This document shows positions 13,601 through 55,753 of a DNA stretch of 64,000 nucleotides, in pieces. How positions within the stretch are numbered: position 1 is the stretch's first letter; the number at the start of each line of letters is the position of its first letter. The translations under genes were made by a program, and so were the position numbers. The notes below the pieces were generated by a model. It did no database searches and was not told the origin of the DNA. It saw nothing but the letters and a program-made list of their open reading frames with translations. This stretch comes from Vulcanimicrobiota bacterium (GTDB lineage: Bacteria; Vulcanimicrobiota; Xenobia; Xenobiales; JADMJV01), in contig JBFWNU010000001.1 of NCBI GenBank assembly GCA_050250895.1, forward strand, positions 2,852,891 to 2,916,890. Reading direction: 5' to 3'.

Positions 13601-13831
13601 ATGCCCGTCAAAGTCAACGGAGACCAGTTCTTCCGGCTGGGCGAAGTGGCCGAGGCCGTGGGTGTCTGTCGTCAGACCCTGTGGCGCTGGCGCCAGGACG
13701 GGAAGATCCCCGAAGGTCGTCGCTATCGCGAGAAGCAGCTGCTCTACACCCACGAAGAGCTCGAGGCGGTCCGCGAGTTCGCAAATCGGATGGAACCCGC
13801 GTCGGTAGCGCGGGGCGGAGGAGAATCATGA
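13601..13831 (+). CDS. Small MerR/excisionase-like HTH DNA-binding protein
   Basis: [27 protein letters not shown]; ATGA overlap with queC. Confidence 0.8.
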
Positions 13832-15161: not shown

Positions 15162-15173
15162 AGGAGCGGCATC

Positions 15174-15641: not shown

Positions 15642-16377
15642 GTCCGAGGGCAAGCAACAGACCGTGGCCCGGTTGACCATGTCGGTCAACCTGCCGCATC
15701 ATTTCAAAGGCACGCACATGAGCCGCTTTCTCGAGGTGCTCAACCACCATCGGGGCGAGTTCACGGTGCACACCTTTCCGGCCATCCTCAAAGAGTTGCG
15801 CGAGCGATTGCAGGCCGAGACGGCTCGCATCGAGGCCACGTTTCCGTATTTCATCGAGCGGGTGGCGCCGGCCAGCGGGGCTCGCGCCCTGCTCGACTAC
15901 GAGTGCTCGTTTCTCGGAGACCTCAGCCCCGAGCAGCAAGACTTCTTGCTCACGGTCACGGTGCCGGTCACCAGTCTGTGCCCCTGCAGCAAGGCCATCA
16001 GCGACTACGGCGCCCACAATCAACGCGGTCACGTGAAGATGGCGGTCAAGACGGTCAGCCACGAAAACCTGGTCTGGATCGAAGAGTTGGTGGAGATTGC
16101 CGAGCAGTCTGCCTCGGCTCCCGTCTACCCGCTGCTCAAGCGGGTCGACGAGCGGCACGTCACCATGCAGGCCTACGACAATCCGGTCTTCGTCGAGGAC
16201 ATCGTGCGCAATGTGGCCGTTCGCCTGCGCGAAGACGAACGGGTGGCCAGCTTCGAAGTCGAGGCGGTCAATCAAGAGAGCATCCACAATCACAGCGCCT
16301 TCGCCCGCACTTCGTGGGTTCGCACGGCTCCTGACCGAGAGCAAGCATCCGAGAGAGCCGCAGTTCTGGTAGGCTAG
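15538..16377 (+). CDS. folE2: GTP cyclohydrolase IB
   Basis: [49 protein letters not shown]. Confidence 0.95.
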
Positions 16378-16378
16378 C

Positions 16379-19660: not shown

Positions 19661-19672
19661 GAAGGAACCACC

Positions 19673-28550: not shown

Positions 28551-28793
28551 ATGAACGTCACTGCCGCAAACGCCCAGAATCTGATCTTCGTTGAGCTAGA
28601 TGTCCAGAGGGATTCGATCTACCTGGCAGCAGTCCAAAACTACGGTAAAGCGTTGTCGGCGAAAAGCGCCTCGGCACGCCTCGGCACGAAGAAGCGCGAC
28701 AAAATGCGCCAGTTCGTGCACAAGTATCGCAGGCCTCCCATTGGAGCAGTTGGGGTGGTGAGACCTGCCCGGAAACTGGATGAGCAGGAGTGA
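28551..28793 (+). pseudogene. Possible IS110-family transposase N-terminal remnant
   Basis: IFVELDVQRDSIYLAAV resembles the IS110 start motif xVGLDVHKDSI; short and degenerate. Confidence 0.4.
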
Positions 28794-28885
28794 AGTCTAT
28801 TCGGCTTCAAGCCACCGCACGACTGACAATCTCTGTCAGGGGAGTTTGCTACGCTGTGAAGAAGAGCCTACTCCGGGAGGTCGTC

Positions 28886-32362: not shown

Positions 32363-34854
32363 AGACACTCCTGCAAGAGGCCAAGTGCCTGACCGAAGCC
32401 CTCGAGGCTGCCGAAGCGCTGGGAGCGCTCGACTGGCAGGGTCAGTCGGTGATGGCCTGCCTCCAGTGCTTTCTTCGGGCCACGGCACCCTCAGACCGGG
32501 GGGCATTGCTGCGTGAATTGGTGCGACTTTGCGAAGGGATCGTGTCGCTGCCCTTCCGACCCGAGATCGAGAGCCTGGGGGCCGACATCCTCGCTCGCTA
32601 CGGCTTGCGCTCGAACCTGCGCGACGAGCGCATCTATTTGAGTCTGGCTCCCGGCCGACCGGGCGTCGAGAGTGATTTTCTGAAGAGAGTGGCCTGGGCG
32701 TGCCAACTCGACCGACTCACGCGTCGGCCCTATCCTCCCACCCTGGCCGACGGTTCGCTGCGGCGCTTGATGGGCCGGGACGGCTATCGCACTCCCACCC
32801 AGAAGGCGGCCGCCCGCGCCGCCATGATGATGCCGGGCGACGGCAGTCTGCTGGTGACGATGCCGACGGGTGCCGGCAAGAGCCTCATCTTCCATCTGGC
32901 CACTCTTTGGTGGATCGAGGGCACCGCTCCCGGTCGGGCTTGCTCGGTCGTGGTCGTGCCGACCGTTTCACTGGCCCTGGACCACGAGCGCACCGCCCGT
33001 GCCATTCCCGGCCTCGAAGGCAGTCGCGCCCTGCGAAGCGATCTCGCTCCCAGCCTCTATCAGGAGACACTCGAAGCCTTTCGTCGCGGCGAGGTGCCGA
33101 TTCTGTTCGTCTCGCCCGAGGCCGCCATGGGCCGGGCCCGAGACGCCCTGCTCGAAGCGGCCACATCGCTGGCCGAGAAGACCGAGCGGCTACAGGCGCG
33201 TTTGATGGGCTTCTTTGTCGATGAGGTCCACATCGTCGAGTCCTGGGGGCGCTCATTCCGCCCCGACTTCCAGCGCCTGCCCGCCCTGGCCGCCGAATTG
33301 CGCGAGCGCAACAGCAGCCTGCGCACCATCCTGCTCTCGGCCACCGTCAGCGATTCGGCCCTCGAGTTGTTGAAGGCCAGCTACGGCACCGACCAGTTCC
33401 TCTCGCTCTCGGCCGGCGTGGCCCGCTATGAGTTCGACTGGATGGTTAATCGCTGCCCCAACCGCGAGGAGCGTCACCAGCAGGCCTTGCAGGCCCTCGA
33501 CCTGTTGCCCCGGCCCTGCATCGTCTACACCACCACCCGCGACGACGCTGAGCACCTCTACCGCGACCTCGGTCAACGGGGCTACCAGCGGCTTCGCATG
33601 TTCACGGGGGACACCTCGGGCCTCGAGCGCCAGGACATCATTCAAGAGTGGGCCACCGATCAGGTCGATCTGGTGGTGGCCACCTCGGCCTTCGGTATGG
33701 GTATCAACAAGTCCAACGTGCGGGCCGTGCTGCACGCCTGTTTGCCCGAGAATGCCTCGCGTTACTACCAGGAGGTAGGGCGAGGTGGGCGCGATGGCCA
33801 TCAGTGTCTGGCCCTCTGTTTGTGGTGTCCTGAAGACCTTCGCACCGCCCGCGGGTTGTCGACTAGCGAGTGGCTGACGCCCGAGATGGCCGCCACGCGC
33901 TGGCAGGCCCTGCTCGACGACGCTCGGGGCAACGGCGGCTTGCGCTCCAACAAAGGCTCCCACGAGGTCACGGTGCGCCTCGACGCTGCTCACCAGGCTC
34001 TCGGTTCGAAGACCGGCGGACGCAACCGTGACTGGAATCGCCGACTCTTGAACTTGCTCCAGCGCGGCCGAGCTATCGAGTTGCTCACCGATGGCCAGGC
34101 TGACCACGACAGCCCGGTGTGGAGGTTTCGGGTGCTCAAGCCCGAGATCTTCGGCTCTGGGCCCGAGGCCCTGGCTAGCCTGAACGCCCTGCGCGATGCC
34201 GAGCAACACGAAGTCAACCGCCAGTTGCAGGTCCTTCAGGCGCTGGTCGAGCACCCCGAAAGTCAGTGCCTGTTGGCCGGCCTCTTCGAGTTCGTCGAGG
34301 CTGGCCAGCCGATGCCCCAGTATTGCGGCCACTGTGCCTGGTGCCATGCCCAGGGCATCACTCCCCCCGAGAAGCTGCATTTCGGCGGCCTGGATGAGGT
34401 CTGGCCGCTGCGCCCCCCGCGGCGTGAGGTCTTCCCCAGCGGCGTCAGCGCGCTCCAACACGGCGGCGACCTGATGGCCCTCATCCCGCGCTTGCAGCGG
34501 GCCGGCCTGCAACAGTTTCTCGTGCCCGATGGCGAAGGCGAGCAGGCCCTGCGAGTGGTGGGCGAACAGCCGGGCCTGGGACTGGTCCTCGAGTTCTCGA
34601 TGGTCTTGCGTCAGGACTGGGCGCCCGCCGAAATGCCCACCGCGGTCTTCTTCACCGACGAGCGACCCCAGAACGACTCGATGATGAGTTGGGTTCGCAA
34701 GCGGTCTAAGCGCCATCCCAACCACGTCTGGCTGCTGGTGGCTCCCCCGAACATCGGCTTCGAGGAGCGGGGCCTCAACGTGCTGGCCAGCCAGGCACCC
34801 TACGACGAAGCCCAACTAGAAGCCCTCATCAGAAAGGAACCCGTCACTCCGTGA
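32359..34854 (+). CDS. dpdF: DpdF, RecQ-like helicase
   Basis: TTG start overlapping the dpdE stop; MPTGAGKS, DEVH, SFRPDFQ, SAT, ATSAFGMGINK, QEVGRGGRDG. Confidence 0.87.
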   Translation: MKTLLQEAKCLTEALEAAEALGALDWQGQSVMACLQCFLRATAPSDRGALLRELVRLCEGIVSLPFRPEIESLGADILARYGLRSNLRDERIYLSLAPGRPGVESDFLKRVAWACQLDRLTRRPYPPTLADGSLRRLMGRDGYRTPTQKAAARAAMMMPGDGSLLVTMPTGAGKSLIFHLATLWWIEGTAPGRACSVVVVPTVSLALDHERTARAIPGLEGSRALRSDLAPSLYQETLEAFRRGEVPILFVSPEAAMGRARDALLEAATSLAEKTERLQARLMGFFVDEVHIVESWGRSFRPDFQRLPALAAELRERNSSLRTILLSATVSDSALELLKASYGTDQFLSLSAGVARYEFDWMVNRCPNREERHQQALQALDLLPRPCIVYTTTRDDAEHLYRDLGQRGYQRLRMFTGDTSGLERQDIIQEWATDQVDLVVATSAFGMGINKSNVRAVLHACLPENASRYYQEVGRGGRDGHQCLALCLWCPEDLRTARGLSTSEWLTPEMAATRWQALLDDARGNGGLRSNKGSHEVTVRLDAAHQALGSKTGGRNRDWNRRLLNLLQRGRAIELLTDGQADHDSPVWRFRVLKPEIFGSGPEALASLNALRDAEQHEVNRQLQVLQALVEHPESQCLLAGLFEFVEAGQPMPQYCGHCAWCHAQGITPPEKLHFGGLDEVWPLRPPRREVFPSGVSALQHGGDLMALIPRLQRAGLQQFLVPDGEGEQALRVVGEQPGLGLVLEFSMVLRQDWAPAEMPTAVFFTDERPQNDSMMSWVRKRSKRHPNHVWLLVAPPNIGFEERGLNVLASQAPYDEAQLEALIRKEPVTP

Positions 34855-35741
34855 GCGTTCTCAGTAGCACCCGAGGAGACCCAGAACTCCTCTACGCCGT
34901 CTTGCGCCTGCTCCAGGCGCGGGGCGAACCGCTGGCCACCACCGAGTTGCGCGACTGGCTGCAACCCGGCCTGGAGAGATACCCCGGTAGTCTGCTAGGA
35001 GACACCCTGGGGGTGGCCCGCAGCCTGGGTCTGGTGCAGTCGGTCGGCAAGAGCGTCGAGCTCACCTCAGAAGAGCCCCTTGACGCCATCGTGCAACTCG
35101 CCGATCGCGTCCACCTCAGACTTTGCACCTGTACCGCCGACGACCCGGACCTGGTGCTCTATCAGACTTTTGCCTGGTTCGTGGTGCAGTGCGAAAAGAA
35201 TGGCCAGACCACCCAGTGGATCGAGGGCTATTCGCGGCGTTCGGACCTGGCCGATGAGATCGACCAGGCCCTGCGCACCCTGCGACCCGACCAGGATGCC
35301 CGGGTGTTCAACGACTCGAAATATGCAAGTTGGAGCAACTGGCTGCACTTCACCGGCCTCGCCTGCGACCTGGGCAAGAGTTTTGGATTCTATCCGTTCG
35401 TCTACGAGCGGCTCAAACGGGAACTAGCCCGAGTGTCACACGACCTCGGTTTGAGAAAACAACTCGACCTGGAGATCGTGCTCCAGGAGGTGGCTCGCGC
35501 GATGCCTTATCTCGACGGCGGCAGAATTTTCGCAGACCTCTCGTCGGCGCTGAGGTGGCAGCAGCCACCTCGCAAGCTGACCCTGGTGCTTAGCACCGCC
35601 TTGCGCGAACTGCACGACCTCGAAGAGATCGAACTAGTCTCGAAGGGCGACATGGCCGACGCCTTCGCCCTGGCCGAAGACCGCTACTCGCGGGTCGGCT
35701 TCGCCCGCTGGATTGTTTTGAAGGAAGGTCTGTTTTCGTGA
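34851..35741 (+). CDS. dpdG: DpdG
   Basis: Size and position between dpdF and dpdH; FNDSK...W, PYLDGG, LSTALRELH motifs. Confidence 0.78.
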   Translation: MSVLSSTRGDPELLYAVLRLLQARGEPLATTELRDWLQPGLERYPGSLLGDTLGVARSLGLVQSVGKSVELTSEEPLDAIVQLADRVHLRLCTCTADDPDLVLYQTFAWFVVQCEKNGQTTQWIEGYSRRSDLADEIDQALRTLRPDQDARVFNDSKYASWSNWLHFTGLACDLGKSFGFYPFVYERLKRELARVSHDLGLRKQLDLEIVLQEVARAMPYLDGGRIFADLSSALRWQQPPRKLTLVLSTALRELHDLEEIELVSKGDMADAFALAEDRYSRVGFARWIVLKEGLFS

Positions 35742-38700
35742 GCTTCGAGGGATTTGTTTGTTGGAAAGAGAGCGATGCCCGGGCCATCCTGGCCACCGAG
35801 GCTCTGGAAGGCAGTGAGGCCGCCTTCTTAGCCACCCATCTGCCCATCTCCGACTTCGAGGTGCAGGGCGTTCACGGGGCCGACATTCAGGAGGCCACCG
35901 AACAGGCTCTGCTCGACGTTCTCTCCACTCCCGAACGGCGCCACGCTTTTTGCGTGGTGGAGGGTGAGCCCGGTTCGGGGAAGTCGCATCTCATTCGCTG
36001 GCTTGGCGTCCGGTGGCCGCGAGGCGACGATCTCGTCCTGCTCATTCAGCGCGCCGATGGCAGCCTTGAGGGCACTCTCGAGCAACTGACCCGCAAGGTG
36101 CCCGAGCGTTACGCGCATCTCTTCGCGGGTCTCGGCAGTCGTCAAGAGGCCTCGTTGCGGGGACGGGCTCGCCTCTTCCTTTCGACTCTGGCCCGAACCC
36201 TCGAGGAGGATTACTTCGAAGAAGACGTTCCCCATGCCGAATGGTGTGCCAACTTTCAACTCTCTGACCTCTTCGACAACCCGGCCGTGCGCGACAATTG
36301 GCGAACCCCTGGCCGAATTCTCGACATCTATTCTGGTCGGACCAACTCAGAATTGGGCTTCTTTACCCTGAAGGATATCGCTGAACTGGCCGACCTCGAA
36401 AGCCGGATCCAGAACGAGAAGCCACCGCCAAAGGCTTTTCGCTTCATCCGCACGCTGGCAAAAGAGGGGCGGGAGCTGCGCAACTTTCTGGAGGCCGACT
36501 ATACCGAGTCGGAGATCAAAGCGGCCGCCGGCGACAAGCTCGTCAACACCTTCACCCTGGTCGACGCGCTGAACGTGCGTCTCAACCATGCCATTCAGAA
36601 CCTTATCGGCATCAGCTCGCACGGGCTGCGCGAACTCTTTCTGCGCTTGCGCCGCGAACTCAAGAAAGACAACCGTCGGCTGGTGCTGCTGCTGGAGGAC
36701 ATCACCAACTTTCAGGGCATCGACCAGCAGTTGATCGACGCCCTGGTCACCCAGAGCACCACCCGCACCGAAGACGACCTCTGCGACCTGGTCTCGGCGG
36801 TGGGCATTACGCCTGCCTACTTCGAGCGCTACCTCAGCACCATGGGCAACTACATCGAGCGCATTACCTATCACGTTCGCCTCGGGCGCGAGCAAGAGGG
36901 CAGTCACATGCAAGACGTGGCCAGCCTGCGCAACCCGGAAGCCCAGGTTCAATTTGCCGCCAACTACCTTCGAGCCACCCGGGCCGGGTTAGAACGCCTG
37001 GAACAGTGGGCCGGCAGCCAGGACCAGTCAGTTCCCAATGTCTGCTTGTCCTGTCAGCACCGGTCGGTGTGCCATGGTGCCTTCGGAGCCGCCGACGGAG
37101 TCGGTCTCTACCCCTTTACGGCCGGGGCCATCACGGGCATGTTCCATCGACTGGTCGACCCTCACGCGGCCACCCAGACCACACATCAGACTCCGCGCGG
37201 TATGCTCCAGGGAGTCTTGACCCCGACGCTGATGCACCCGCACGTCATCGAAGAGCAAGAATTTCCCTCACCCCACGCCGATGTGCCCTGGATCCCCGAG
37301 GAGCGACGGAGGTTGCGGGGCGACCACAAGCAGTTTCTGGCCGTCCAGGTGCAAGACCTCGACACGCGCCAACGCCTCGAGCGCCTCATCGAACTGTGGG
37401 GCACCCGCGACCACGTCGAGACCACCAAAGACGAAGCGGGTGAATTGCTTTTTGCCGGGCTCTCACGGGGGGTCTACGAAGCCTTTTCATTGCCGTGGTT
37501 GGGCGATGCCCAGCGGGCGCTCGAGACCCCCGCGCCGCCGCCCCCGCCTGTGGCGGTGGAACAGCCGAGAGTGCACCGAGTCCAGCCATCGGCGCCCTCG
37601 CCCAAGAAGAGTCGGACCGAGGTCATCCCGTCCGAGAAGCGCGCCACACCGAAGAAGGTGCGAGTCGACCTCGACATACGACGCGACCAGCTAGCGAATT
37701 GGCTAAAAGACGGGGGTCGTCTTGAAGATGCGGAGTTCTGGGCAGCGCAGGTTCAGAAGCTCCTGGACCTTTTGCCCTGGGCCCATTTGGACGTATCCCC
37801 GGCAATTCGAAGAGGCTTCTTCACGTCGAACCTCATCCACATCGAACGAAGTGGCACCGCACGCCGCGCCTACCACTTCGTCATTCCGGCCGAGAAGTGG
37901 TTGGCTGACGGACTCGAGGTCTTCATTGCTATCGAGGCGGGCACCGCAGAGGTCAGCGAGTTCCAGCGGCGCTGTCTGGCTCGGGCTCTGTCTCAACTGA
38001 AGAGGCTCGTCCTGCGACGTGTGGCCGAGGTGATTCCCTCGGTCGAGGGTCGACCCTGGTCGGTTGCCGGGTCAGCAACCCAGCTGCTGGTGGCGATGGA
38101 GTGGTTGGGCAAAGGAGCTTCGCCCGAGCAACCGCTGGTGGAGCAGTGGATACGGGTGCGCGACGACCAGGCACCCGGGGCGCCATCGAAGGAGAGAACA
38201 CAAAGGTGGCGGCGCGTGGCCGAGTTGAGCAGGCACCGGAGCGTGCTTCGTAACCTGCTGGCGAGTTTCATCACCTTACGAGACGGCACAGTCTTCTTGG
38301 ACGCAGCCGATGCGTGCACCGCGCTCGAGCGCCTGCGCCGAACGTTTTCGTTCGACGCAACCCCCGATCTGCCCGACCTTCAGCATTGGGCGGACATGAA
38401 GAAACTTGGGCAGCGGGCGCAAGACTCGCGCGCAGATTTTCAGTTGGCGGCAAGAGACGAGATTCGTCGTTTGCGAGACGGCTGCCAGGAGTTGGACGAG
38501 TACTTGCGCCAGAACTCGCTTTCGGAGCACGTGAAACGCATAGACTCGGTTCTCGAGGGAGTGCAGCGAGTGGATGTTCTTACCACCAATCGGCCCCGCG
38601 AATGGCATGACCAGCGAGGGGCGCTCGAGGACGCGGGGCTGATTGGGCCTTCGCCGGCTCTCGACATCTGCGGCTTCTTGGACGAGACACTTGAGCGCGA

Positions 38701-38950
38701 CGGCGAGTTCTCATCGCCTCTCGATGCTTTCCTCTGGTGTAGGGGGGCGCCGGCTGAAGCTCTGCAGCTGGTCCTTTCGGCCTGTCGCTCGGGAGAAGCC
38801 CTGGTGGCCGACCTCTTCACCCACGTACAGACCTATGGAGATGTGCGTGGCGGGGAAGCGAGTCTATCGAAGGTTCACGAGCGGGGCGAGTGGTTGAAAT
38901 CGGTGGGCGACGCCCTTCGGGCGCAGTTGGAGGTGAAGAGTGAAGTCTAA
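35738..38950 (+). CDS. dpdH: DpdH, P-loop ATPase
   Basis: GEPGSGKSHLIRW, LVLLLED, CxxC...CHGAFG...GLYPF. Confidence 0.85.
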   Translation: MSFEGFVCWKESDARAILATEALEGSEAAFLATHLPISDFEVQGVHGADIQEATEQALLDVLSTPERRHAFCVVEGEPGSGKSHLIRWLGVRWPRGDDLVLLIQRADGSLEGTLEQLTRKVPERYAHLFAGLGSRQEASLRGRARLFLSTLARTLEEDYFEEDVPHAEWCANFQLSDLFDNPAVRDNWRTPGRILDIYSGRTNSELGFFTLKDIAELADLESRIQNEKPPPKAFRFIRTLAKEGRELRNFLEADYTESEIKAAAGDKLVNTFTLVDALNVRLNHAIQNLIGISSHGLRELFLRLRRELKKDNRRLVLLLEDITNFQGIDQQLIDALVTQSTTRTEDDLCDLVSAVGITPAYFERYLSTMGNYIERITYHVRLGREQEGSHMQDVASLRNPEAQVQFAANYLRATRAGLERLEQWAGSQDQSVPNVCLSCQHRSVCHGAFGAADGVGLYPFTAGAITGMFHRLVDPHAATQTTHQTPRGMLQGVLTPTLMHPHVIEEQEFPSPHADVPWIPEERRRLRGDHKQFLAVQVQDLDTRQRLERLIELWGTRDHVETTKDEAGELLFAGLSRGVYEAFSLPWLGDAQRALETPAPPPPPVAVEQPRVHRVQPSAPSPKKSRTEVIPSEKRATPKKVRVDLDIRRDQLANWLKDGGRLEDAEFWAAQVQKLLDLLPWAHLDVSPAIRRGFFTSNLIHIERSGTARRAYHFVIPAEKWLADGLEVFIAIEAGTAEVSEFQRRCLARALSQLKRLVLRRVAEVIPSVEGRPWSVAGSATQLLVAMEWLGKGASPEQPLVEQWIRVRDDQAPGAPSKERTQRWRRVAELSRHRSVLRNLLASFITLRDGTVFLDAADACTALERLRRTFSFDATPDLPDLQHWADMKKLGQRAQDSRADFQLAARDEIRRLRDGCQELDEYLRQNSLSEHVKRIDSVLEGVQRVDVLTTNRPREWHDQRGALEDAGLIGPSPALDICGFLDETLERDGEFSSPLDAFLWCRGAPAEALQLVLSACRSGEALVADLFTHVQTYGDVRGGEASLSKVHERGEWLKSVGDALRAQLEVKSEV

Positions 38951-39653
38951 GTTGGCGCCACTGGAGGAACTCGAAGCTGCTTTACCCGGCCTGGGCGGGG
39001 CCGTTCAACGACACCACCTGGGCCAGAAGCTGGACTTTGCCTGTTCTCGCCTCGATAAGATCGCCGGAAGAGCGCAGGAGTTGGCGACCTATCCCGAGGT
39101 TCTGCCCCTGGTAATTGAGCAGCTCGAGGCCGTTGTTCGAGAGAATCTAGCTGGCAAGGCGCGAGGAGTTTGGGCCATCGGGGACAGGGCGTGCAAAGCG
39201 GACACCGCCGACGCTCTCGACGAGTTGGCTCGGGAGTTGAGCAAGATTGGCGAGTGGGCTAAGGAGATGCAGAGCTATCTCTTGGCGGCCTGGCAGCGAC
39301 GGGTCAAGACGGAGTTCGGCCCGGCCGGCCACTTGGGCCGGGTCCTCCAAGAACTCGCCGATGCGCCAGACCTGCGCGAAGTCGCCGAAATGATGACTGA
39401 GGTCGGTGCCGAGGGGGCGAAGTGCGGTGCCCGCTTGCCAGTGAACGAGGAACAGCGGAGGAGGTTCGCCCGCTTACGGGCTGAGCGCGACGAGGCCTAT
39501 GCGCTGTTGGCTGCTTCAGGGGCAGCGGATGATGTGGTGGAGTTTCTCCAGGCTGTGGCCGAGGATAGAGCGACGCTGGAGCAGGTCACTCCGGGAGTTT
39601 TTGGTTGGTTGCGGGAGAAGGGCGCTGGGGGAAGGTTTAGGGTGGGGTTATGA
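38940..39653 (+). CDS. dpdI: DpdI-like helical protein
   Basis: 237 aa coiled-coil-like ORF overlapping the dpdH end; call rests mainly on position and size. Confidence 0.6.
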   Translation: MKSKLAPLEELEAALPGLGGAVQRHHLGQKLDFACSRLDKIAGRAQELATYPEVLPLVIEQLEAVVRENLAGKARGVWAIGDRACKADTADALDELARELSKIGEWAKEMQSYLLAAWQRRVKTEFGPAGHLGRVLQELADAPDLREVAEMMTEVGAEGAKCGARLPVNEEQRRRFARLRAERDEAYALLAASGAADDVVEFLQAVAEDRATLEQVTPGVFGWLREKGAGGRFRVGL

Positions 39654-47145: not shown

Positions 47146-47150
47146 GAAAT

Positions 47151-50100
47151 TTAGTCCTCGCCGCTGCCCCTCGCTGGAAGTGCGTCAAGCACCCGCCGGT
47201 CCCAACCCTTCGGTCGGACATCGGGGCACTTGGCAAGGGCCTTGCCGGTCGGCGGGGTTTCGGGTTTTAGACAAGCGAGGTCGGCGGGCTCCATCAAGGC
47301 TCTTCGACTCAAAGCCGCCCTCGCCTGCGTCCCTGACATCAAATCACTGCTCCCAAACAGACAAGCCTCACAGCCATCCGGGCACAGTCGTCCCGCGAAG
47401 CGAAAGACTTGCTCGGCCAGTCGCTCTTCGGGGCTCATCCCGGCCTCATGCGAGACGCCCTCCAGTCCCCGATAGGCGGCAAGTAGGCCCGCCAACTGTG
47501 GCGAGCGGCCGTCCTGAGCTGCTTTCACCGCTCCCGTTACCAGTTCCCAGGTCGACGGGGCCCTGGGCATCGACTGGGCCAGTTCGGCCTCGACCGCTCG
47601 CACTTCGCGAACCAGGTCGAAGAAGTCGAACTGCTCCACGCCGACCGTCTCGCGACCGTGCAACAACTGCACCAGGCGTCCAAGGTCACCATCCACGCTC
47701 AATTCGGTCCGTAGCGCCTCGACGAGAGCTGCCCGGTCGAGCGAGCGCCACCGCTCGTGCTGCTCGCTCATGGCCAGCATCCGGTCCACCGCCGCGTCCT
47801 CGCGAGCGTTCGGACAGTCCACCAGGCCATGGTCCCGAACCTCGTCGAGGGCCTCTTCGAAGCTCTCCAAAAAGGTCCGGGTGGTCCCGTCCCCGTGGTC
47901 ACCGTTCTCCACCACCGAGATGATGTCGTGAGACTCGGCCCCAAATTGCAGAGGCAGCCGAGCGTGAAAGAGCACCCGGCGCTCGTCCCCCCGCCCATAG
48001 AGCACGAAGAGGTCCCGCAGACGCATCGCCAACCCATGCAGAAAGAGCGACCGAAGGTAACCCCGAAAGACCTCCGCGTCGCTGACATCGGTGACGATCT
48101 TGCGAAAGGTGTCGGCGAAGCCGGCCCGCTCCAGCACCTTTTCCAGCTTGTCGATGCGCCGCTCGGTCAGCAACGGGTGATAGCGCAAGACGTTGCGATA
48201 GGTCTCTCGCAGCAGGTTCATCATCCTGGTCTGGTCCCACCGCCCCCGCAACACTTTCTTCCCTTCGTCACTGGCGGCCGCGCTCACGAACAACTCGGCC
48301 AGGCGGTTGGCTTCGAAGCTATTCACGCCGAGGCCCGATAGCCTGCTCTCCATCAAATAGGCCAGTAACTTGCCCCGATAGTGGCGCTCCTCGCCCGGAT
48401 TGGCCTGGAGATGCTCCAGCATGGCATCGACCCGAGCATCGAGCTTGGCGCTGTCGACGTGAAACCGCACTCCCTCGGTCTCGACCTGATAGCCGTGCAG
48501 CAGGGTCTTGTCGGTCTTGGGATAGACGAAGGTCTGGGTGAACTCGGCGTCCTGGGTCTTGGTGTCTTTGAGCTTCAGCGACACGTCGGCCCCCCAGTAT
48601 AGGCGGGTGACCCGCAGCCCCGTGCCCGGCCGGTCGGATGAGCCGACAAAGGCCTCGACTTTCTCGAACAGGTCAGATAGGTCGGTGGGGGTGATGTCGC
48701 TGCCGCGGCCGTCTTCAGCCGCCACCACCAGAAAGCCCCGTAGGAATGAGCGACTCTTTTCGGTGGCCGGCAGGCCCGGCTCTTGCTGTTGCTTGTCTCG
48801 CTTGATGAGACCGTGGCCCTCGCGATAGAGCCAACCCGAGGTGAAGCTGGCGCCAGACATTTTCCCGCCGAGGTCGAGGTCGAGGGTCTTCGGACGGCAG
48901 ATCTTGGGGTAGATCTCGGCCCCAAGGCCATCCCGCACCTCGACGGGCAGCTCGCGACGAAAGTCTTCTCCGCTCTGTTCCTGACCGGTGAGCGTGAAGC
49001 CGGTGCTGTCGCGATAGTCGCTCAAGAAGGGGCTGCGACCGGGCGTGGGGGGCACCCAGTGGACCGTCCCCATGCCGTAGCGGCGGGTCATATTGCCCGG
49101 GGCGCACTCGGTAAAGGCCAGGGTGATATCGACAGGCACCGGGTCTCGCGCATCGGGATGGCGCACCATCAGCAGCGGCAGGTTGATCGAGTCAAACAGC
49201 CGCTGGGGCACCCAGGCCAGACTGCCACGCCACGTCGAGGGCTCTGCGGTCACGTCCAGTCCTTCCTCTTCCAGCAGCTGCTGAAACAAGGGAAGCGAGC
49301 TCTCGAGGCCGAGAATGGCGAACACCGTTGGCCCGCAGGCGGCCACGACCATCTCATCCGCCATGGTCACCAGTTGAGGCGCCACCTCGAGCTTGCCAGA
49401 GGTTCTTCTCAAGCCGTACTTTCCGGGATGCAGGGTTCGAAAGCGGGCCACGGCGTCGAGAGCGGTGGCGGCCGCCTGACCACGCACGACGAAATAGTTG
49501 CTGATGTTGAGCGGCACCGCGAAGTTGCGGGCATCGAGCATCCGCCGAGGCGAGCGAAAGTACCACGAGTCTCGCGAGGAATAGACCGACAACGTCACTC
49601 CCGTCACGGGACGGTCATCGGCTCCGCGGCCCCCTCGACCCTTGCGTTGGATGAAACTGGCTAGATTGCCCGGAGCATAGTGCTGATAGACGAGCGTCAT
49701 GTCGGGGTCGTCATAGCCCACCTCGAGAGTCGAGGTGGCAAAAATGAGGTCACTGTTCTGCAGCAGTTCTTCGGTGCGACCGCTGGTGCCTGAAAAGATG
49801 GGGCGGTGGGCTACCGTGAGAGGGTCGCCGGGGCGATAGCGTTTGCCGGCCATCCACTGAGCCTGGTCGGTGGCCGCGAAGAACCAACACTCGCCCTCAC
49901 GAAAGCGGTCACAAGAGAGCGGCTCCCTGCAGCAGGCGCGGCACGGCTCGCCGGTGGCCGGGTCGTCGTCAAGTAGTTCGGTGCGTAGCGCCGCCAGTTT
50001 GTTGGCCTCCGCATCCGAGTAATCGCTGTGCAGGCGCTTGAGTTTGTCGATCGAGTCGAGAAAGACCACGCCTCGAAAGCCGCCTTCTTTGCCGGTACGG

Positions 50101-53100
50101 CGGCGCATTCCGTGGGCCAAACACATCAGGCACTGGATGGTGGTCGAAGCGCCGGCGATGTCCTGGCCTCGCGATTCGACCTCTGGCTGGACGAAGTAGA
50201 AATACTCCCGACCGCGCGGATTGACCAGTCGTTCCTCCTCGGTCGGCCCCAGGGCCACCACCTGCTGGCGGCCACAAAGGTCACCCCACACCCGGTCGGG
50301 GCGGCTCAGGGTGGCGCTCATCCCAATGGCCAGAGGACTTTCGTCGCCGTTGACGGTCAGGCGCGCCAACAACCGCCGCAGGGCATAGCCAACCTGGGCC
50401 CCGTGCACATGCGAGTAGAGATGGATCTCGTCGGCCATCACCGCCCGAGCGGGAGCAAACTCCGTATCGCCAAAGATCGCACCATATCTGGAGTCGTGTT
50501 GCCACTGGTGGAGCGACTCGGTGACCGGCAAGAAGAAGTGAGGCGGGTTTTGGCGCAGGCCCTCCTTCGAGCCAATCCACCCCAAGAAGCACCAACCGCA
50601 AGCACACTCCAGTCGGTCGGCCCCTCCTCGGCCCTCACCCTCGAGCAAAGATAGATCCTGCGAACATTCAGGACAAGAGAAGAAAGGAAACTGCAAGGCT
50701 CCGCCAGGCAGCGCCCGCCATTCTTCGAACTTGTCGGGGTTGGACCGCAGATAGCCAAAGGCCGAGGGTACGCTGCCGTTCTGCAAGCCGATGGTGAGAG
50801 GAGCGACCCCGGGGTGCTGGTTGAACGCGGCCAGGTAGCGCACCAACCGCTGCGCCTGGTTGGCCCCCAGGCGAATGCGGGGATAGACCAGGATGGCCCG
50901 GCAGCCGCGCACCCCCCGCAGTGCGTCGACGGCTGCTCCCACCAGCATCGGCAGGCAAGCCGCTTCGGTCTTGCCCGAGCCGGTGTCGGCTGTTACCACG
51001 AAGGCCTCCTCCTTGCCAACCCCCAGCCAGGCCGAGAGGATGCTCAAAAGAGCGCGCTGCTGAAAGCCGGCGATGGTCGGGTTGTCGACGCCCCAGCAGA
51101 CCGAGAGCATGTGAGCGCAGGCCTCCAGGGCCAACTCAAGATTGGGATCGTCGGCCAGCAGGCCCCGGGCCTGCTCCAGAGTGGCCCGCAGAGAAACGTC
51201 ACGAATCGGCTTCTGGCGGTCGATGGTCTCGAGCTTGAGTGAGCGCACCAGATAGGGGCGCCGGTGGGCGTCGCCCTTGCGAAAGCGCTGCTTCACGTAG
51301 CGCAACTCGCGGGCCAACTCGGCCATGCGACTGCGAACGCCGCCTTGCTCGTCGGGCATCAGATGGCCATGTTGCTCAAGCCGGTTAATGGGTTCTAAAA
51401 GCGCGTCGCGGGCCACACCCAGTCTTTCGGCCAGCGTGGAGAGCATCACCCACGATTCGGTCACGCCGAAATTGATGCGACCTCGCTCGATATCCTCAAG
51501 AGCGTTCAATACCTCGAAGTCACCGTCGGTGAGTTGCACTTCTGGCGGTGGCAGGGGCTGCTCGTTCACTTCCGTCGCGCTAGTCAGATCGAAGGTTGGT
51601 TCGTCGTTATGGCTGGTCTCCACCAAAAGGCCCTCTTTGACCAGGTCTCTCAGCAAGGGCAGTAAGACATCCTGCTCCTGGGCATTGACCCATACAAAGC
51701 TGTTGCGCAGGTGGCGGTATTGGGGCGCGAATCGGCCTCGGCGGCGAGAGTGGATCACCTCGTCGATGCGGCTGCGCACGGTCACCTCATCGGCGGTAAA
51801 TGGCAACGACGGCGGCTCGATCGGTTTGAAGCACCAGAACCTTCCGTGGGGCCCCGTCTGTTCGGCGAACTCGATCATGCCCAGGGTTAGCAACTGATGA
51901 AAGAGGGCGAAGGGCGGTTGGTAGGCAAGCTTCTTGCGGACTGCGCTCACGGTGGCGTTGCCGTAGCGGCTCTCGAGGGCGCAAGCTTTGATGGCTCCGA
52001 AGAGTTCCTCGAGTTCCCTCGTCAGCTCTGGGGGATCTTCGACGGCAGAGACCTCGACTGGCTGTAGCTCTTCTGGCGCCTGACCGAAGGTCTTGACGCG
52101 GATGGTGACCTCGACCCCTCTTCCGTCGCACTGACGTTCGACTGCGCCGATTTTGTGTGTGTCGAAGAGGAACTCGCGCAGCAGTTGGGCGTGTTCAAAG
52201 AGTTCCTCGTCGGGTGGCACCACCTCGAGCAGACGATTGCTGGCGATCACCACCAGTTTGGTCTTAGCTCGCGTGATCATCACGTTGAGGCGCTGGGGAT
52301 TGAAGAGAAACTCGGCCTCTGACAGAGCGAATTCTGGGTCTGAGACGGTGTAGCAGGCCAGAATGGTATCGCGCTCTTTGCCCTGGATGCGCTCCACCGT
52401 CTCGACCACACAGCCCTCACTCAGCGTCGAGTTCTCGAAGCTCCGTCGAATAGCGGCGTTCTGGGCACGATGCGGCGTGATGATGGCGAACCGGTCCTGC
52501 CAGAACTGGTCGTGGTCGAGATAGCGGTGGAACAGCCTGGCCAGGTGGCCGGCTAGATCGACCTCGAATGGGTTGAGCGTGCCGTTCGGCGGGCCATCGT
52601 GCAGCAGCACCACGATCGGATGCTCGGGGTCGAGCACGGCGCACTCCCAGGGGGCTAGAGCCTCCCTCCAGTCGCCTCGCAGTTCCAGGCGCTGCTGCCC
52701 TGACTGCTCGGACGCTTTGTAGTTGCTCTGGTAGAAGCTCTGCGCCGGAAAAGCGGCCAGGGGGGCATTGAGCCGAAAAGTCTCGTCGAGGGGAAACTCC
52801 GGAATCTCGGCCTTCTTCAAGAAGGCATAGAGCGAGCCCGTGAGGCGCCGCTCATCGAGTTCTTCATCCTGGCTGGCCCGGATGGGAGCTAACTGGCGGT
52901 CGTCGCCCACCACCAGCACGCGCCCGTCGTTGGCCAACCCACCTAGCCCCAGCAGGCCGTGCGAGAGCAGCATTTGCGAGGCTTCGTCGACACAGACCAG
53001 GTCGAACCTGGGAGCGTCGCCCCGTTTGAGCCTCTTGAAGAGCGACCACACGGTACCGCCGGCCACAAACCACTCGGCCTCGAGCGGCTTGACCGTCTTG

Positions 53101-53522
53101 TGGTCGAGGGCCTCCACATCGCCAGCCAGATCCTCCGGAGCCTGCTTGCCCAGGAAGAATACCGGCCCCGGGCCCGTGCGGCGCACGACCGCGTTCAGCA
53201 CGTTGACCACCGCGTTGCGCGTGAAGGCCGTCACGAAGACTCGGCAGGGCCGATTCTGGGCTTGCCGAGCCCTCAGATAGCCCACTGTCATGGCCGAGAG
53301 CACGAAGGTCTTGCCGGTGCCTGGAGGGCCTAGCAACAGTGCCGCCCTGTGGTTGGCGATCCCCTGCCAGGCCCGCTGTTGGCCGTCCAGGAGTTTGGTC
53401 ACCCCGCTCAGTTCCTGGCCCTCGAGCCAGGCTTGTCGGGAGTGCTCGGCCACCTGGGCCGCAAATTCGGCAGGCTTGGCCAGAAAGTGGTTGATTTGTT
53501 GGCGCACGCCGCTGTCGATCAC
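47151..53522 (-). CDS. dpdJ: Fusion of Dna2/Upf1-like SF1 helicase and DpdJ (SF2 DEAD/DEAH helicase), 2123 aa
   Basis: SF1: GPPGTGKT, DEASQ, GDDRQL, TVERIQGKE, RLNVMITRAK. SF2: ADTGSGKTEA, DEIH, SATL, TSTLEVGYD, QRKGRGGR; C-terminal CPDGCEAC. Confidence 0.85.
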   Translation of the reverse strand: MIDSGVRQQINHFLAKPAEFAAQVAEHSRQAWLEGQELSGVTKLLDGQQRAWQGIANHRAALLLGPPGTGKTFVLSAMTVGYLRARQAQNRPCRVFVTAFTRNAVVNVLNAVVRRTGPGPVFFLGKQAPEDLAGDVEALDHKTVKPLEAEWFVAGGTVWSLFKRLKRGDAPRFDLVCVDEASQMLLSHGLLGLGGLANDGRVLVVGDDRQLAPIRASQDEELDERRLTGSLYAFLKKAEIPEFPLDETFRLNAPLAAFPAQSFYQSNYKASEQSGQQRLELRGDWREALAPWECAVLDPEHPIVVLLHDGPPNGTLNPFEVDLAGHLARLFHRYLDHDQFWQDRFAIITPHRAQNAAIRRSFENSTLSEGCVVETVERIQGKERDTILACYTVSDPEFALSEAEFLFNPQRLNVMITRAKTKLVVIASNRLLEVVPPDEELFEHAQLLREFLFDTHKIGAVERQCDGRGVEVTIRVKTFGQAPEELQPVEVSAVEDPPELTRELEELFGAIKACALESRYGNATVSAVRKKLAYQPPFALFHQLLTLGMIEFAEQTGPHGRFWCFKPIEPPSLPFTADEVTVRSRIDEVIHSRRRGRFAPQYRHLRNSFVWVNAQEQDVLLPLLRDLVKEGLLVETSHNDEPTFDLTSATEVNEQPLPPPEVQLTDGDFEVLNALEDIERGRINFGVTESWVMLSTLAERLGVARDALLEPINRLEQHGHLMPDEQGGVRSRMAELARELRYVKQRFRKGDAHRRPYLVRSLKLETIDRQKPIRDVSLRATLEQARGLLADDPNLELALEACAHMLSVCWGVDNPTIAGFQQRALLSILSAWLGVGKEEAFVVTADTGSGKTEAACLPMLVGAAVDALRGVRGCRAILVYPRIRLGANQAQRLVRYLAAFNQHPGVAPLTIGLQNGSVPSAFGYLRSNPDKFEEWRALPGGALQFPFFSCPECSQDLSLLEGEGRGGADRLECACGWCFLGWIGSKEGLRQNPPHFFLPVTESLHQWQHDSRYGAIFGDTEFAPARAVMADEIHLYSHVHGAQVGYALRRLLARLTVNGDESPLAIGMSATLSRPDRVWGDLCGRQQVVALGPTEEERLVNPRGREYFYFVQPEVESRGQDIAGASTTIQCLMCLAHGMRRRTGKEGGFRGVVFLDSIDKLKRLHSDYSDAEANKLAALRTELLDDDPATGEPCRACCREPLSCDRFREGECWFFAATDQAQWMAGKRYRPGDPLTVAHRPIFSGTSGRTEELLQNSDLIFATSTLEVGYDDPDMTLVYQHYAPGNLASFIQRKGRGGRGADDRPVTGVTLSVYSSRDSWYFRSPRRMLDARNFAVPLNISNYFVVRGQAAATALDAVARFRTLHPGKYGLRRTSGKLEVAPQLVTMADEMVVAACGPTVFAILGLESSLPLFQQLLEEEGLDVTAEPSTWRGSLAWVPQRLFDSINLPLLMVRHPDARDPVPVDITLAFTECAPGNMTRRYGMGTVHWVPPTPGRSPFLSDYRDSTGFTLTGQEQSGEDFRRELPVEVRDGLGAEIYPKICRPKTLDLDLGGKMSGASFTSGWLYREGHGLIKRDKQQQEPGLPATEKSRSFLRGFLVVAAEDGRGSDITPTDLSDLFEKVEAFVGSSDRPGTGLRVTRLYWGADVSLKLKDTKTQDAEFTQTFVYPKTDKTLLHGYQVETEGVRFHVDSAKLDARVDAMLEHLQANPGEERHYRGKLLAYLMESRLSGLGVNSFEANRLAELFVSAAASDEGKKVLRGRWDQTRMMNLLRETYRNVLRYHPLLTERRIDKLEKVLERAGFADTFRKIVTDVSDAEVFRGYLRSLFLHGLAMRLRDLFVLYGRGDERRVLFHARLPLQFGAESHDIISVVENGDHGDGTTRTFLESFEEALDEVRDHGLVDCPNAREDAAVDRMLAMSEQHERWRSLDRAALVEALRTELSVDGDLGRLVQLLHGRETVGVEQFDFFDLVREVRAVEAELAQSMPRAPSTWELVTGAVKAAQDGRSPQLAGLLAAYRGLEGVSHEAGMSPEERLAEQVFRFAGRLCPDGCEACLFGSSDLMSGTQARAALSRRALMEPADLACLKPETPPTGKALAKCPDVRPKGWDRRVLDALPARGSGED

Positions 53523-55753
53523 GCCTGGTCTCCCAGCATCTCGAGAAACTCGACCACCCTCTCGGTATTGAAGTCGCGGAAGGAGCGGTCAATAAACCAC
53601 TGATCCTCGGGGTTGTCCAGCAAAAGGTGCTGCATCTCGGCGGACCCGTACTTCGCGGCCCACATCCGGGCCCGCACCTGCGTGTTGCTGTCGACAGGGT
53701 CTAGTTGGATCTGAAAAGGTTCCCAGCGGGTGGGGTCGAGCAGGATGTCGGGGTCGTTGTTGGTCAGCACCAGGTTGATGTCATCCGGCCCCAACTCCGC
53801 GTCGCGGCTTTCGGTTGGCACCCTGAACCTGAACCTGGCCCACGGCTTGCCCTCGCGATGACTCTCGAGTCGCAGCTGGGCGAAGCACTTCATCGCATCG
53901 CGGCGCGCCTCCCAAGGTTGGGCCAGGCTGATGAGGGCGTTGAGCATCCCAGACTTCTCGGCCAGCAACTCGTAGGCTCGCAAGATCTCGAGGTCTTCTC
54001 TACCCAGCGGATTGAATTCGGCCTGGAACGCGAAAGGCTGTTTTCTCAGCCGCAGGAACGGAGAAGCAGCGGCAGCGTTCTGTTCGAGCACCCACCGGGC
54101 CAGGTGGCGCAACGAGGCCAGACGAATGCGCAGGTCGTCTTCGATGTCGCGCATACCCCGGTGACCATCTCGAAGCTTGCGCAAGACCTCGATGGAGAGT
54201 CGGGTGGAGAAGTCTCGCTTGAAAGCTTGCGACGGTTCGTAGGCCTCGCTCAGTCCGACAGCGGTGAGAGCCTGGGTGACCTGGCGCAGGTCGTAGGACA
54301 CTGTCACCGGCAGCAGATAGAGCTGCTCCATCACCGTCCTCAGGGCGGTGGCGGGAAGGTGGTGATAGCCGCGATAGCCTGGTTCGGGGATGACTTCTTC
54401 GGGCGGGAATAGTCGCACCAGGTCAAGCAGTCCGGTGCGGATGTCGGGGTCGTTCAGGTGGCGACCCACTGCCCGTTGCAAGTCTTTGGCTTCGGATGGC
54501 TCATAGAGCAAGATGTGGGCGTAGAGGCGCTGGGCTTCGGGCAGCCGCTGGTTGTGCTCGTGCAGCCGTCGCAGGTCGAGGACCAGTTTGCCCAGCACTT
54601 GCTTTAGCGCGCGTATCTCCTCGGCGGGCTGGCCCTTCGGCAAGAGGGCTGTGGCGTATTGCACCTCACCCTGCCAGTCGAGGAGATAGCCGAGAGTGAC
54701 CAGGTTGCCCTGCATCGGGTCGGAGTCGACCACCAGATACAGGCCTACGTCGATGCGAGGTGGCATCAGGTAGGTATAGCGCTCTTCGAGTATCTTCGGC
54801 TGCCCATTCACCAGCGTCTCGGCTCGGAGCCGGAGCAACTCGGCCTGGCGCTTGAGCGACCAGCTGTCGAGCTTCTGGTTGCGGATACCCTGGGCGCGGG
54901 CCAGGCCACCCACTGTGTGGATGCCCAGCTTCTCCAGGGCCCGCTTGGCCTCGTGGCTCATGCCCGGCACGGCCGATACGTCATTCTTGGCGGCTTCTCG
55001 CTCGATGGCGCGACGGCAATGGGGGAGATAGCCACACTGCTCGCATTTGTAGTAGAGGTGGAAGAAGGTTTCGTCTCGTCCGGGTTCTACGACCTGTTCT
55101 TGCAGCCGAGGCACGGTTCTTTCGAAGAAGTCTCTGACCAGGTTCTCATAGCTCTTGAGCTTGAACTCGAGCCTGTCATAGAGCCCGTCGGCTCCGTCTT
55201 CACCGCGGCGCAGGTGCCAGATTTCGCCCACTTCGTCCACTCTCGCCTCGACGCCCATGTCTTTGAGCATGCCCTGGAGCAGGTGGGAGTAGAAAGCCAC
55301 CTGCGCTTTGTGGAAGTAGGTGGCCACCTGGGTTGCTTTGACGTCGATGATGCGAATGGCGCCGTCGACCCACTGGAGTAGGTCGGGGTAGCAATGCCTG
55401 AAGATGATCTGGTCGTCGCTGCTGAGTTGCTGCCTCAGGCTCGGGCCGCCGAAGAGGACGGCCTGGTGGGCGAACTCGCAGTCGTTCTGACCGCGCAGGA
55501 AGGCCGCCGTGATGCGCTGGCCGAGGTTCTGCTCGCCCGCCTTTGGGGTGAGGACCTTGCTCTCGCGCGCCAGGCGGCGGACGACGGCCAGTTCGAAGTC
55601 GTTGCCCAGTTCGGCCCAGCTGTCCTTCTGGTCGTCTTTGAGGATAGGGATGGCCTCGCGCTCGTCGCGACTCATCGTCTCGTAGCGCGTCTTGCGGTCA
55701 CATCGATATTGAAACCACGATTTGATGGTCGTGGCACTGAAGCTTAGTGGCAT
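53519..55753 (-). CDS. PD-(D/E)XK RecB/Cas4-like nuclease with putative Fe-S cysteines (Dna2/TM0106-like N-terminal half)
   Basis: YRCDRK...PDLL...IIDVKAT...HKAQVAFY...KCEQCGYLPHC; HhH-like VPGMS; 4-nt overlap with the helicase-DpdJ gene. Confidence 0.82.
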   Translation of the reverse strand: MPLSFSATTIKSWFQYRCDRKTRYETMSRDEREAIPILKDDQKDSWAELGNDFELAVVRRLARESKVLTPKAGEQNLGQRITAAFLRGQNDCEFAHQAVLFGGPSLRQQLSSDDQIIFRHCYPDLLQWVDGAIRIIDVKATQVATYFHKAQVAFYSHLLQGMLKDMGVEARVDEVGEIWHLRRGEDGADGLYDRLEFKLKSYENLVRDFFERTVPRLQEQVVEPGRDETFFHLYYKCEQCGYLPHCRRAIEREAAKNDVSAVPGMSHEAKRALEKLGIHTVGGLARAQGIRNQKLDSWSLKRQAELLRLRAETLVNGQPKILEERYTYLMPPRIDVGLYLVVDSDPMQGNLVTLGYLLDWQGEVQYATALLPKGQPAEEIRALKQVLGKLVLDLRRLHEHNQRLPEAQRLYAHILLYEPSEAKDLQRAVGRHLNDPDIRTGLLDLVRLFPPEEVIPEPGYRGYHHLPATALRTVMEQLYLLPVTVSYDLRQVTQALTAVGLSEAYEPSQAFKRDFSTRLSIEVLRKLRDGHRGMRDIEDDLRIRLASLRHLARWVLEQNAAAASPFLRLRKQPFAFQAEFNPLGREDLEILRAYELLAEKSGMLNALISLAQPWEARRDAMKCFAQLRLESHREGKPWARFRFRVPTESRDAELGPDDINLVLTNNDPDILLDPTRWEPFQIQLDPVDSNTQVRARMWAAKYGSAEMQHLLLDNPEDQWFIDRSFRDFNTERVVEFLEMLGDQA

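Follow-up and report, generated by a model that had tools for sequence, protein, structure and literature searches.

The window analysed here, a stretch of 64,000 nucleotides from a Vulcanimicrobiota bacterium (GenBank assembly GCA_050250895.1, contig JBFWNU010000001.1, positions 2,852,891 to 2,916,890), is a Dpd island with both a modification and a restriction arm. Two adjoining open reading frames (ORFs) on its minus strand are the subject of this work: a gene for a PD-(D/E)XK nuclease (P0002) and, directly downstream, a long dpdJ gene (P0001) whose product joins a superfamily 1 (SF1) helicase to the superfamily 2 (SF2) helicase DpdJ. The stop codon of the first (TGA) and the start codon of the second (GTG) share the letters GTGA (...GCG TGA / GTG ATC...), and this overlap of 4 nt suggests that the nuclease is translationally coupled to dpdJ. 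The two genes and their domains are laid out as follows.

53519..55753, minus strand: nuclease gene, 744 aa, ATG start, conserved partner of the long DpdJ
55004..55753, minus strand: nuclease residues 1-250, RecB/Cas4-like PD-(D/E)XK domain with its cysteine set (PDDEXK_1 match and alignment)
54794..55003, minus strand: nuclease residues 251-320, helix-hairpin-helix (HhH)-like DNA-binding segment and linker helix (weak HhH Pfam matches and structural model)
54254..54793, minus strand: nuclease residues 321-500, predicted RNase H-like fold (secondary structure and invariant acidic residues)
53522..54253, minus strand: nuclease residues 501-744, C-terminal region that is conserved but not assigned to a family (alignment and model)
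47151..53522, minus strand: long dpdJ, 2123 aa, GTG start, SF1B helicase, linker and YprA-type SF2 DpdJ in one chain
52083..53522, minus strand: DpdJ residues 1-480, Dna2/Upf1-like SF1B module with Walker A GPPGTGKT at 65-72 and DEASQ at 179-183
51516..52082, minus strand: DpdJ residues 481-669, linker with no domain assigned and column conservation of 27-34%
47154..51515, minus strand: DpdJ residues 670-2123, full DpdJ homologue with an N-terminal DNA-binding region, RecA1 with a Zn ribbon, DEIH, RecA2 and a C-terminal cysteine region (PADLOC and hhalign)

A first reading of this DNA, made from the sequence only, had described a nuclease with a split cysteine set overlapping by 4 nt a single ORF with two full helicase motif sets, and both features were recovered. 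Along the long DpdJ, Pfam places AAA_11 and AAA_12 (SF1) ahead of DEAD and Helicase_C (SF2), the latter set comprising TGSGKT (847-852), DEIH (1031-1034) and QRKGRGGR (1292-1299). Both motif sets are at least 95% conserved across 36 members of the long-DpdJ family, as are the cysteines C1903, C2047, C2051 and C2054. The PADLOC DpdJ model PDLC02895 aligns in one stretch to residues 6-2076 (profile positions 3-2104 of 2112; 1709.9 bits), and the long family is already captured by this hidden Markov model (HMM). The canonical-length models PDLC02896 and NF041067 begin at residues 670-672, at their own positions 1-11; NF041067 reaches 319 bits over residues 672-1360 only, below its equivalog cut-off of 800. 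When a profile of 24 long-form proteins was compared by hhalign with one of three PGAP-named canonical DpdJs, 1112 columns were matched (probability 100%, E 2e-72), starting at residue 670 of the window protein and spanning positions 10-1224 of 1507 in the canonical template. Since the models and the profile alignment all start near residue 670, the protein is best described as a complete DpdJ homologue with about 670 extra N-terminal residues, which upholds the assignment of its C-terminal half to DpdJ. As for the added module, profile positions 48-477 find their closest solved structure in the mouse DNA2 helicase domain (5EAN, E 6e-30), followed by Upf1/NAM7, Sen1 and IGHMBP2, all of them SF1B enzymes; these matches support its identification as a Dna2-like SF1B helicase.

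Pfam PDDEXK_1 matches the nuclease with 22.4 bits against a cut-off of 22. D124, K139, Q151 and Y155 never vary in an 18-sequence alignment and D137 hardly does, giving the RecB/Cas4-type pattern D...(D/E)xK...QxxxY (D124, D137-x-K139, Q151xxxY155). The cysteine set consists of C18 and C237-x2-C240-x5-C246; the last three are invariant in all 18 sequences, and C18 is found in each of the 15 that have the N-terminus. The CxxCxxxxxC spacing is that of the iron-sulfur (Fe-S) 'iron staple' of AddB and Dna2, and the nuclease probably carries an Fe-S cluster. TIGR03491 (TM0106 family RecB-like) matches all 18 family members under its curated cut-off, with 48.9 bits against 97.45 for the protein of the window, so that the family is related to TM0106 and not a member of it. 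The Cas4 model PF01930 gives 13 bits against a gathering threshold of 22.7 and weak matches in 6 of the 18 members; no CRISPR context was seen. A search of the nuclease profile against solved structures returned no meaningful match (best E 0.38), the nuclease domain of Dna2 included. HhH-type Pfam models match some family members weakly, and helices occupy residues 251-320 in the structural model.

That AlphaFold2 model (mean pLDDT 83, pTM 0.70) shows, past residue 336, the element order β-β-β-α-β-α-β-α, which is that of an RNase H-like fold. Within the same alignment D343, E418 and E421 are invariant and D345 nearly so; D343 and D345 close the first strand, and E418 and E421 come after the fourth. 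The TIGR03491 alignments extend into this region, and the nearest ESM Atlas clusters by features are of the RNase_H_2 type (cosine 0.88), which serves as a lead only. We therefore lean, with some reserve, towards a second, RNase H-like nuclease domain at residues 321-500, as the model suggests.

DpdK, the PLD nuclease of canonical systems, and DpdD are missing from this genome. The sequence-only reading had found neither gene near the pair, and HMM searches in six frames across the full genome (9.5 Mb, 99.64% complete) widened this absence, with no DpdK over the cut-off (best 27.3 against 100 bits) and no DpdD at E ≤ 0.01. The same holds for all 38 genomes in which the pair was found: none has DpdK over the cut-off, eight showing weak PLD-type matches of at most 30.4 bits, and none has DpdD at E ≤ 0.001. 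The canonical control plasmids were positive, with DpdK in 3/3 (182-199 bits) and DpdD at 630, 494.5 and 290 bits against a cut-off of 300, two of the three being above it. DpdD itself has no Pfam domain. Two candidates for a DpdD counterpart were rejected: the nuclease as a divergent DpdD is ruled out by hhalign (probability 0.12%), and an ORF upstream of dpdE (27674-28441) has no family match and no homologue in related loci.

A sample chosen independently of nuclease type gave the same picture. Random genomes proved an inefficient source of an unbiased Dpd set (DpdJ in 2 of the 400 scored among 401 sampled, one being unscored, and DpdA in 2/401, the seed genome included both times), so the plasmid collection was used, and searching all 72,556 plasmids by tblastn with the DpdJ core yielded 19 records. 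By identity these fall into four at 57-60%, two at 36% and the rest at no more than 31%. The nuclease occurs in four plasmids, exactly the four long-form records of the top tier; the canonical DpdK query finds six, all in the lowest tier; and no plasmid has both. The remaining nine, which had neither by these queries, are the two 36% records, one from Scytonema and six haloarchaeal ones. In the Enterobacter and Agrobacterium plasmids the annotated order is dpdE-F-G-H-I-J-K-D, while the long-form plasmids have a hypothetical protein (~770 aa) and an 'AAA domain-containing protein' (~2100-2170 aa), convergent with dpdI-H-G-F. The plasmid loci of Caulobacter sp. S6 and Methylobacterium sp. XJLW are compact examples of this form. 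A third Dpd arrangement was seen in the Deinococcus taeanensis plasmid (L061, 15539-23710), one of the nine, which has a PLD gene of its own: DpdJ is split into a helicase of 1027 aa and an MZB-containing protein of 736 aa, followed by the PLD nuclease and then by a UvrD-type SF1 helicase annotated as a 3'-5' exonuclease. The DpdJ core of this plasmid is 36% identical to that of the window and lies between the long and canonical forms.

The pair is widespread. Nuclease relatives of similar length number at least 477 (E ≤ 0.001 among 7999 scored candidates), and a search of 1.84 billion cluster representatives gave 182 at E ≤ 1e-30, 469 at 1e-10 and 883 at 0.001. The SF1 region matched 663 proteins at E ≤ 1e-10; the 120 of them that were listed all combine AAA_11/12 with DEAD, nearly all at 2088-2390 aa and four shorter. 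A scan of one genome per species gave 50 loci, of which 40 had a nuclease match over at least 90% of the query and 38 of these at least 2 kb of downstream sequence. SF1 module and DpdJ core lie in one ORF directly downstream of the nuclease in 37/38; in the exception (L004), unrelated ORFs follow the nuclease up to the contig end. Nuclease and dpdJ overlap by exactly 4 nt in 32 of the 37 and by any length in 35, the others having gaps of 1 and 2 nt. Most of the loci continue from dpdJ to a convergent dpdI-dpdH, DpdH occurs in 37/38 genomes that have the pair, and the pair was seen solely in dpd loci, where the nuclease is the only recognisable nuclease conserved across the subtype.

DpdE is an optional component. 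A DpdE-like gene stands beside dpdF-G-H in 11/38 genomes, as in the window (Myxococcota and Sphingomonas among them), and none was found at E ≤ 1e-30 in 24/38, mostly Rhizobiales, Caulobacterales and other Alphaproteobacteria; dpdE is annotated in none of the three long-form plasmids examined (L059, L062, L063). Hosts of the nuclease loci include Alphaproteobacteria, Myxococcota, Chromatiaceae, Bryobacteraceae and Lentisphaeria, and hundreds of protein clusters come from Alphaproteobacteria, Myxococcota, Gammaproteobacteria, Acidobacteriota, other groups and plasmids. Near this genome the nuclease is patchy, being present in 0/15 genomes of the same family and in one of the same order (44% identity). 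The proposal of a distinct Dpd subtype is supported by the lack of DpdK and DpdD in 38/38 genomes with the pair, and the pair is not peculiar to this genome.

Relatives of the two proteins occur in several fusion states. Among longer proteins, the nuclease search found six of 1333-1490 aa. One of them, P0122, aligns at residues 11-881 to positions 5-741 of the nuclease and at 931-1388 to residues 44-472 of the long DpdJ, with 32% identity to the SF1 part (E 2e-50); for P0125 the identity is 35%. In these single chains AAA_11 and AAA_12 follow the nuclease part. The representative search also gave many proteins of 1200-1330 aa whose N-terminal part matches the nuclease profile, and relatives from the same order include two nuclease::SF1 proteins (1174 and 1191 aa; Cas4/PDDEXK plus AAA_11/12) with variable neighbourhoods that lack dpd genes, so that single-chain nuclease::SF1 proteins range overall from 1174 to 1490 aa. 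The 3312-aa protein P0306 holds the nuclease profile (11-879), AAA_11 (929-993), AAA_12 (1161-1373) and a DpdJ part from about residue 1750, which is 31% identical to the long DpdJ from residue 628; as a single cluster representative it is taken as supportive only. A further protein, P0391 (2017 aa), combines a UvrD/GajB-like helicase (about 220-680), the nuclease profile (768-1331) and an SF1B module (1558-1980) that matches the start of the long-DpdJ profile.

These fusion states support a nuclease that works physically with the SF1-DpdJ protein, and the alignments suggest that nuclease and SF1B helicase derive from one ancestral nuclease-helicase cassette. Of the earlier proposal that a split Dna2-like nuclease-helicase had been grafted onto DpdJ, the Dna2-like character holds, given the 5EAN match and the single-chain relatives; a one-off graft does not fit a family of this breadth.

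The two ORFs are, in our judgement, quite probably the effector module of a distinct and widespread Dpd subtype in which a Dna2-like cassette takes the place of DpdK and DpdD. The nuclease would be made in a fixed ratio with the long DpdJ through the conserved start/stop overlap, and DpdJ would have gained its SF1B helicase at the N-terminus. Self DNA would be marked with 7-deazaguanines by DpdA, DpdB and DpdC, and unmarked DNA engaged by DpdE-I together with DpdJ, with the other Dpd proteins providing recognition. DpdJ would next run along the DNA on both of its motors as the docked nuclease breaks the DNA down, and the outcome would be a processive degradation machine for DNA lacking the marks. 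Translocation is 5'-3' in SF1B enzymes such as Dna2 and Upf1, and 3'-5' in MrfA, a relative of YprA; the SF1B motor may accordingly run 5'-3' and the YprA-type SF2 motor 3'-5'. Opposite polarities, if real, could let the motors travel the same way on the two strands of a duplex, like RecB and RecD, and feed a nuclease of the RecB family, so that the pair could act like RecBCD or AddAB.

A bolder version can be put forward tentatively, as a possibility that we rate below even chances. The long DpdJ would be a single-chain double motor of opposite polarities and, with a two-domain nuclease, a RecBCD-like shredder of unmarked DNA. Its cassette would be portable (stand-alone, split and DpdJ-fused, or fully fused) and would have displaced the PLD nuclease, a substitution that would show which Dpd components do the killing.

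Several observations weigh against these interpretations. The PDDEXK_1 match lies barely above its cut-off, the Cas4 and TIGR03491 matches lie under theirs, and Pfam RNase_H_2 (PF13482, YprB-like) gives the nuclease no score. The triple fusion P0306, as one representative, could be a sequencing artefact, and the 3'-5' polarity of DpdJ is borrowed from a relative. The nuclease::SF1 proteins without dpd genes indicate that the cassette can work independently of Dpd, and an HNH endonuclease encoded in the window (20829-21713) is another possible cutter.

The last point bears on the alternative that survives best, which we nevertheless regard as unlikely: the pair belongs to Dpd, and its nuclease serves end processing, resection or clean-up after a cut made by DpdE-H or by the HNH endonuclease. 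Cas4, Dna2 and AddB-type nucleases are end-processing enzymes, which speaks for such a role, and the island of the window does contain the HNH gene. A 2016 review (PMC5699537) treats the question of which enzyme restricts DNA in Dpd as open. However, only one related locus out of 50 (L025) has a homologue of the HNH gene, the subtype shows no further conserved nuclease that can be recognised, and the fact that the pair and the PLD nuclease DpdK exclude each other exactly speaks for an equivalent role.

Less probable still is that nuclease and SF1 helicase form a self-sufficient defence or repair unit that merely adjoins and is fused with DpdJ, other proteins performing restriction. The nuclease::SF1 proteins found without dpd genes would fit this, their variable neighbourhoods resembling defence islands (GmrSD, NERD-UvrD, Uma2), but the in-frame fusion to DpdJ is kept in 37/37 loci and in all 120 relatives listed, the 4-nt overlap is largely preserved with it, and the pair is confined to dpd loci, never with DpdK or DpdD. 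We give very little weight to the view that the SF1 module is an RNA helicase of Upf1/Mokosh type and that the pair targets phage RNA instead of DNA: the SF1 region does match PADLOC MkoA/MkoC (Mokosh) and the Upf1, Sen1 and IGHMBP2 structures, yet its best solved relative is the DNA enzyme DNA2, it is paired with a DNA nuclease of RecB/Cas4 type that has an HhH segment, and it stands within a system of DNA modification and restriction. That the 2123-aa ORF is two genes joined by an error of assembly or annotation can practically be dismissed, as the same single ORF (2102-2216 aa) recurs in 37 independent genomes of several phyla and in four plasmids, and the 2112-position PADLOC profile matches it from end to end.

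If the pair is indeed the effector module, the subtype amounts to a natural swap experiment, in which DpdK and DpdD were replaced by a nuclease-helicase cassette with no exception seen. This swap points to DpdK (with DpdD) and the cassette as equivalent effector modules acting through DpdJ, and the active sites of the cassette are easy to mutate. As a motor design, a double helicase that fuses SF1B and SF2 would be unusual.

The other Dpd genes of the window, with which the pair shares the island, are these.

13681..20818, plus strand: modification arm with queC, queE, folE2 (15538-16377), dpdC, dpdB, dpdA and a second dpdB
28790-32362, plus strand: dpdE (PADLOC)
31870-34854, plus strand: dpdF (PADLOC)
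34851-35741, plus strand: dpdG (PADLOC)
35738-38950, plus strand: dpdH (PADLOC)
38940-39653, plus strand: dpdI-like gene (PADLOC, weak, E 8.9e-4)

Within the modification arm, DpdA (579.6 bits, cut-off 200) and both DpdB proteins (368.6 and 504.3 bits, cut-off 300) pass their NCBIfam models, PADLOC DpdC scores 251.7 bits, and the preQ0 genes are represented by QueC, QueE and FolE2. The genes dpdE-I (28790..39653) converge with dpdJ, and all six proteins from DpdE to DpdJ have PADLOC matches, that of DpdI being weak. Their NCBIfam scores fall short throughout (DpdE 364.5 bits against 500, DpdF 487.8 against 550, DpdG 58.9 against 80, DpdH 323.6 against 450, in addition to DpdJ), which marks the whole restriction arm as a divergent lineage. 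A promoter and terminator scan of 39000-58500 found nothing beyond the shuffled expectation.

Between dpdI and dpdJ, four co-oriented genes (39687-47145, minus strand) encode a 1470-aa protein with WD40 and Amidase_2 domains, an AAA ATPase (IetA/MadB-like, weak) and two TIR proteins of 439 and 244 aa. The last of the set begins 5 nt past the dpdJ stop codon, homologues are found in 0/50 related loci, and the GC content is 0.53-0.57 against 0.61-0.66. The block looks like a lineage-specific insertion in the dpd operon, with which its genes are possibly co-transcribed. On the other side of the pair (55811-57834, minus strand), the nuclease start is preceded at a distance of 57 nt by the end of a gene for a 575-aa protein with two TIR-like regions. 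The start of that gene in turn overlaps a 99-aa ORF by 4 nt, and neither occurs in related loci.

After the second dpdB, the HNH endonuclease (294 aa) is encoded together with a 549-aa protein (20829-23375, minus strand), which has a weak DpdB/DGQHR-like match. In the Mesorhizobium locus (L025), homologues of both genes are found a short way upstream of the nuclease gene, and an HNH/DGQHR pair is annotated in the canonical Agrobacterium plasmid locus too; the two possibly constitute an accessory module of Dpd. The modification genes are separated from dpdE by an ISKra4-family transposase, a TIR::FGE-sulfatase fusion (504 aa) and an unassigned ORF of 255 aa (24567-28441, plus strand). At the island edge lies a separate defence-type gene for a NERD plus UvrD-type helicase (59581-61218, minus strand; PADLOC RTasNERD-Hel, 175 bits), and near the start of the window (3702-11432, plus strand) there are cell-wall hydrolase-type proteins (CHAP/GH108/PG-binding; GH19/M15 peptidase) and a ThsB-like TIR protein (10662-11432, plus strand). 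The 64-kb window contains at least six ORFs with TIR domains.

The NCBI pipeline leaves both proteins of the pair unnamed, PGAP labelling relatives of the long DpdJ 'AAA domain-containing protein', and PADLOC has no model for the nuclease; surveys therefore probably score such islands as incomplete. In the full-text literature on Dpd and 7-deazaguanine that was searched, there is no SF1-fused DpdJ and no such nuclease, with the proviso that supplementary tables may list the architecture. Those papers thus contain no description of the partner nuclease, of the cassette's origin or of the loss of DpdK and DpdD, in distinction from the long DpdJ known to PADLOC. The GATOR-GC study (PMC11888242) reports 146 dpd gene compositions, with dpdD and dpdI the least often clustered, and counts Archangium among the genera with islands devoid of the restriction operon. 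In Archangium violaceum, the locus found here (L008) carries the nuclease, long dpdJ, dpdI and dpdH, with dpdE-F-G-H on the same contig.

Compared with canonical Dpd (dpdA-K; Enterobacter cloacae pPOL9A and Agrobacterium vitis plasmids), the island has the same DpdA, two DpdB, DpdC and preQ0 genes, the same dpdE-F-G-H-I order and a YprA-type DpdJ that is homologous over about 1100 columns. It differs in lacking the PLD nuclease DpdK and DpdD, in a DpdJ with some 670 extra residues that bear the SF1B helicase, in the 744-aa PD-(D/E)XK nuclease that precedes DpdJ, in a dpdJ convergent with dpdI instead of downstream of it, and in restriction-arm proteins that all score below the equivalog cut-offs of NCBIfam. 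According to a preprint on YprA (10.1101/2025.09.15.676423), canonical Dpd has lost a C-terminal cluster of four cysteines; unlike there, the cluster is kept in the long DpdJ. The same preprint mentions a DNA2-like helicase/nuclease in haloarchaeal BRIGADE type I and uncharacterized Dpd-like classes. BRIGADE type I and the Deinococcus taeanensis plasmid share with the window a DpdJ-like YprA helicase with an SF1 helicase-nuclease partner, but they keep a PLD nuclease and a separate SF1 protein, whereas here the PLD nuclease is gone and the SF1 helicase is fused to DpdJ.

The TM0106 family (TIGR03491) and the stand-alone nuclease::SF1B fusions have a Cas4-like nuclease, HhH and, as predicted for the window protein, an RNase H-like region in common with the pair, and alignments of the fusions cover the entire nuclease as well as the SF1 module; the Dpd nuclease is longer, is always paired with the long DpdJ and remains under the TIGR03491 cut-off. 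Dna2 (PDB 5EAN) likewise sets a PD-(D/E)XK nuclease with a cysteine cluster before an SF1B helicase, the latter being the closest solved relative of the module. In the window, by contrast, this unit is split over two ORFs, its helicase half is fused to an SF2 helicase, and its nuclease matches no solved structure by sequence and has extra RNase H-like (predicted) and C-terminal regions. RecBCD and AddAB combine two motors with a RecB-family nuclease, AddB having an Fe-S 'iron staple'. The likeness to these machines would be one of analogy, with homology at the superfamily level only, and the pair of the window would present its SF1B and SF2 motors in a single chain.

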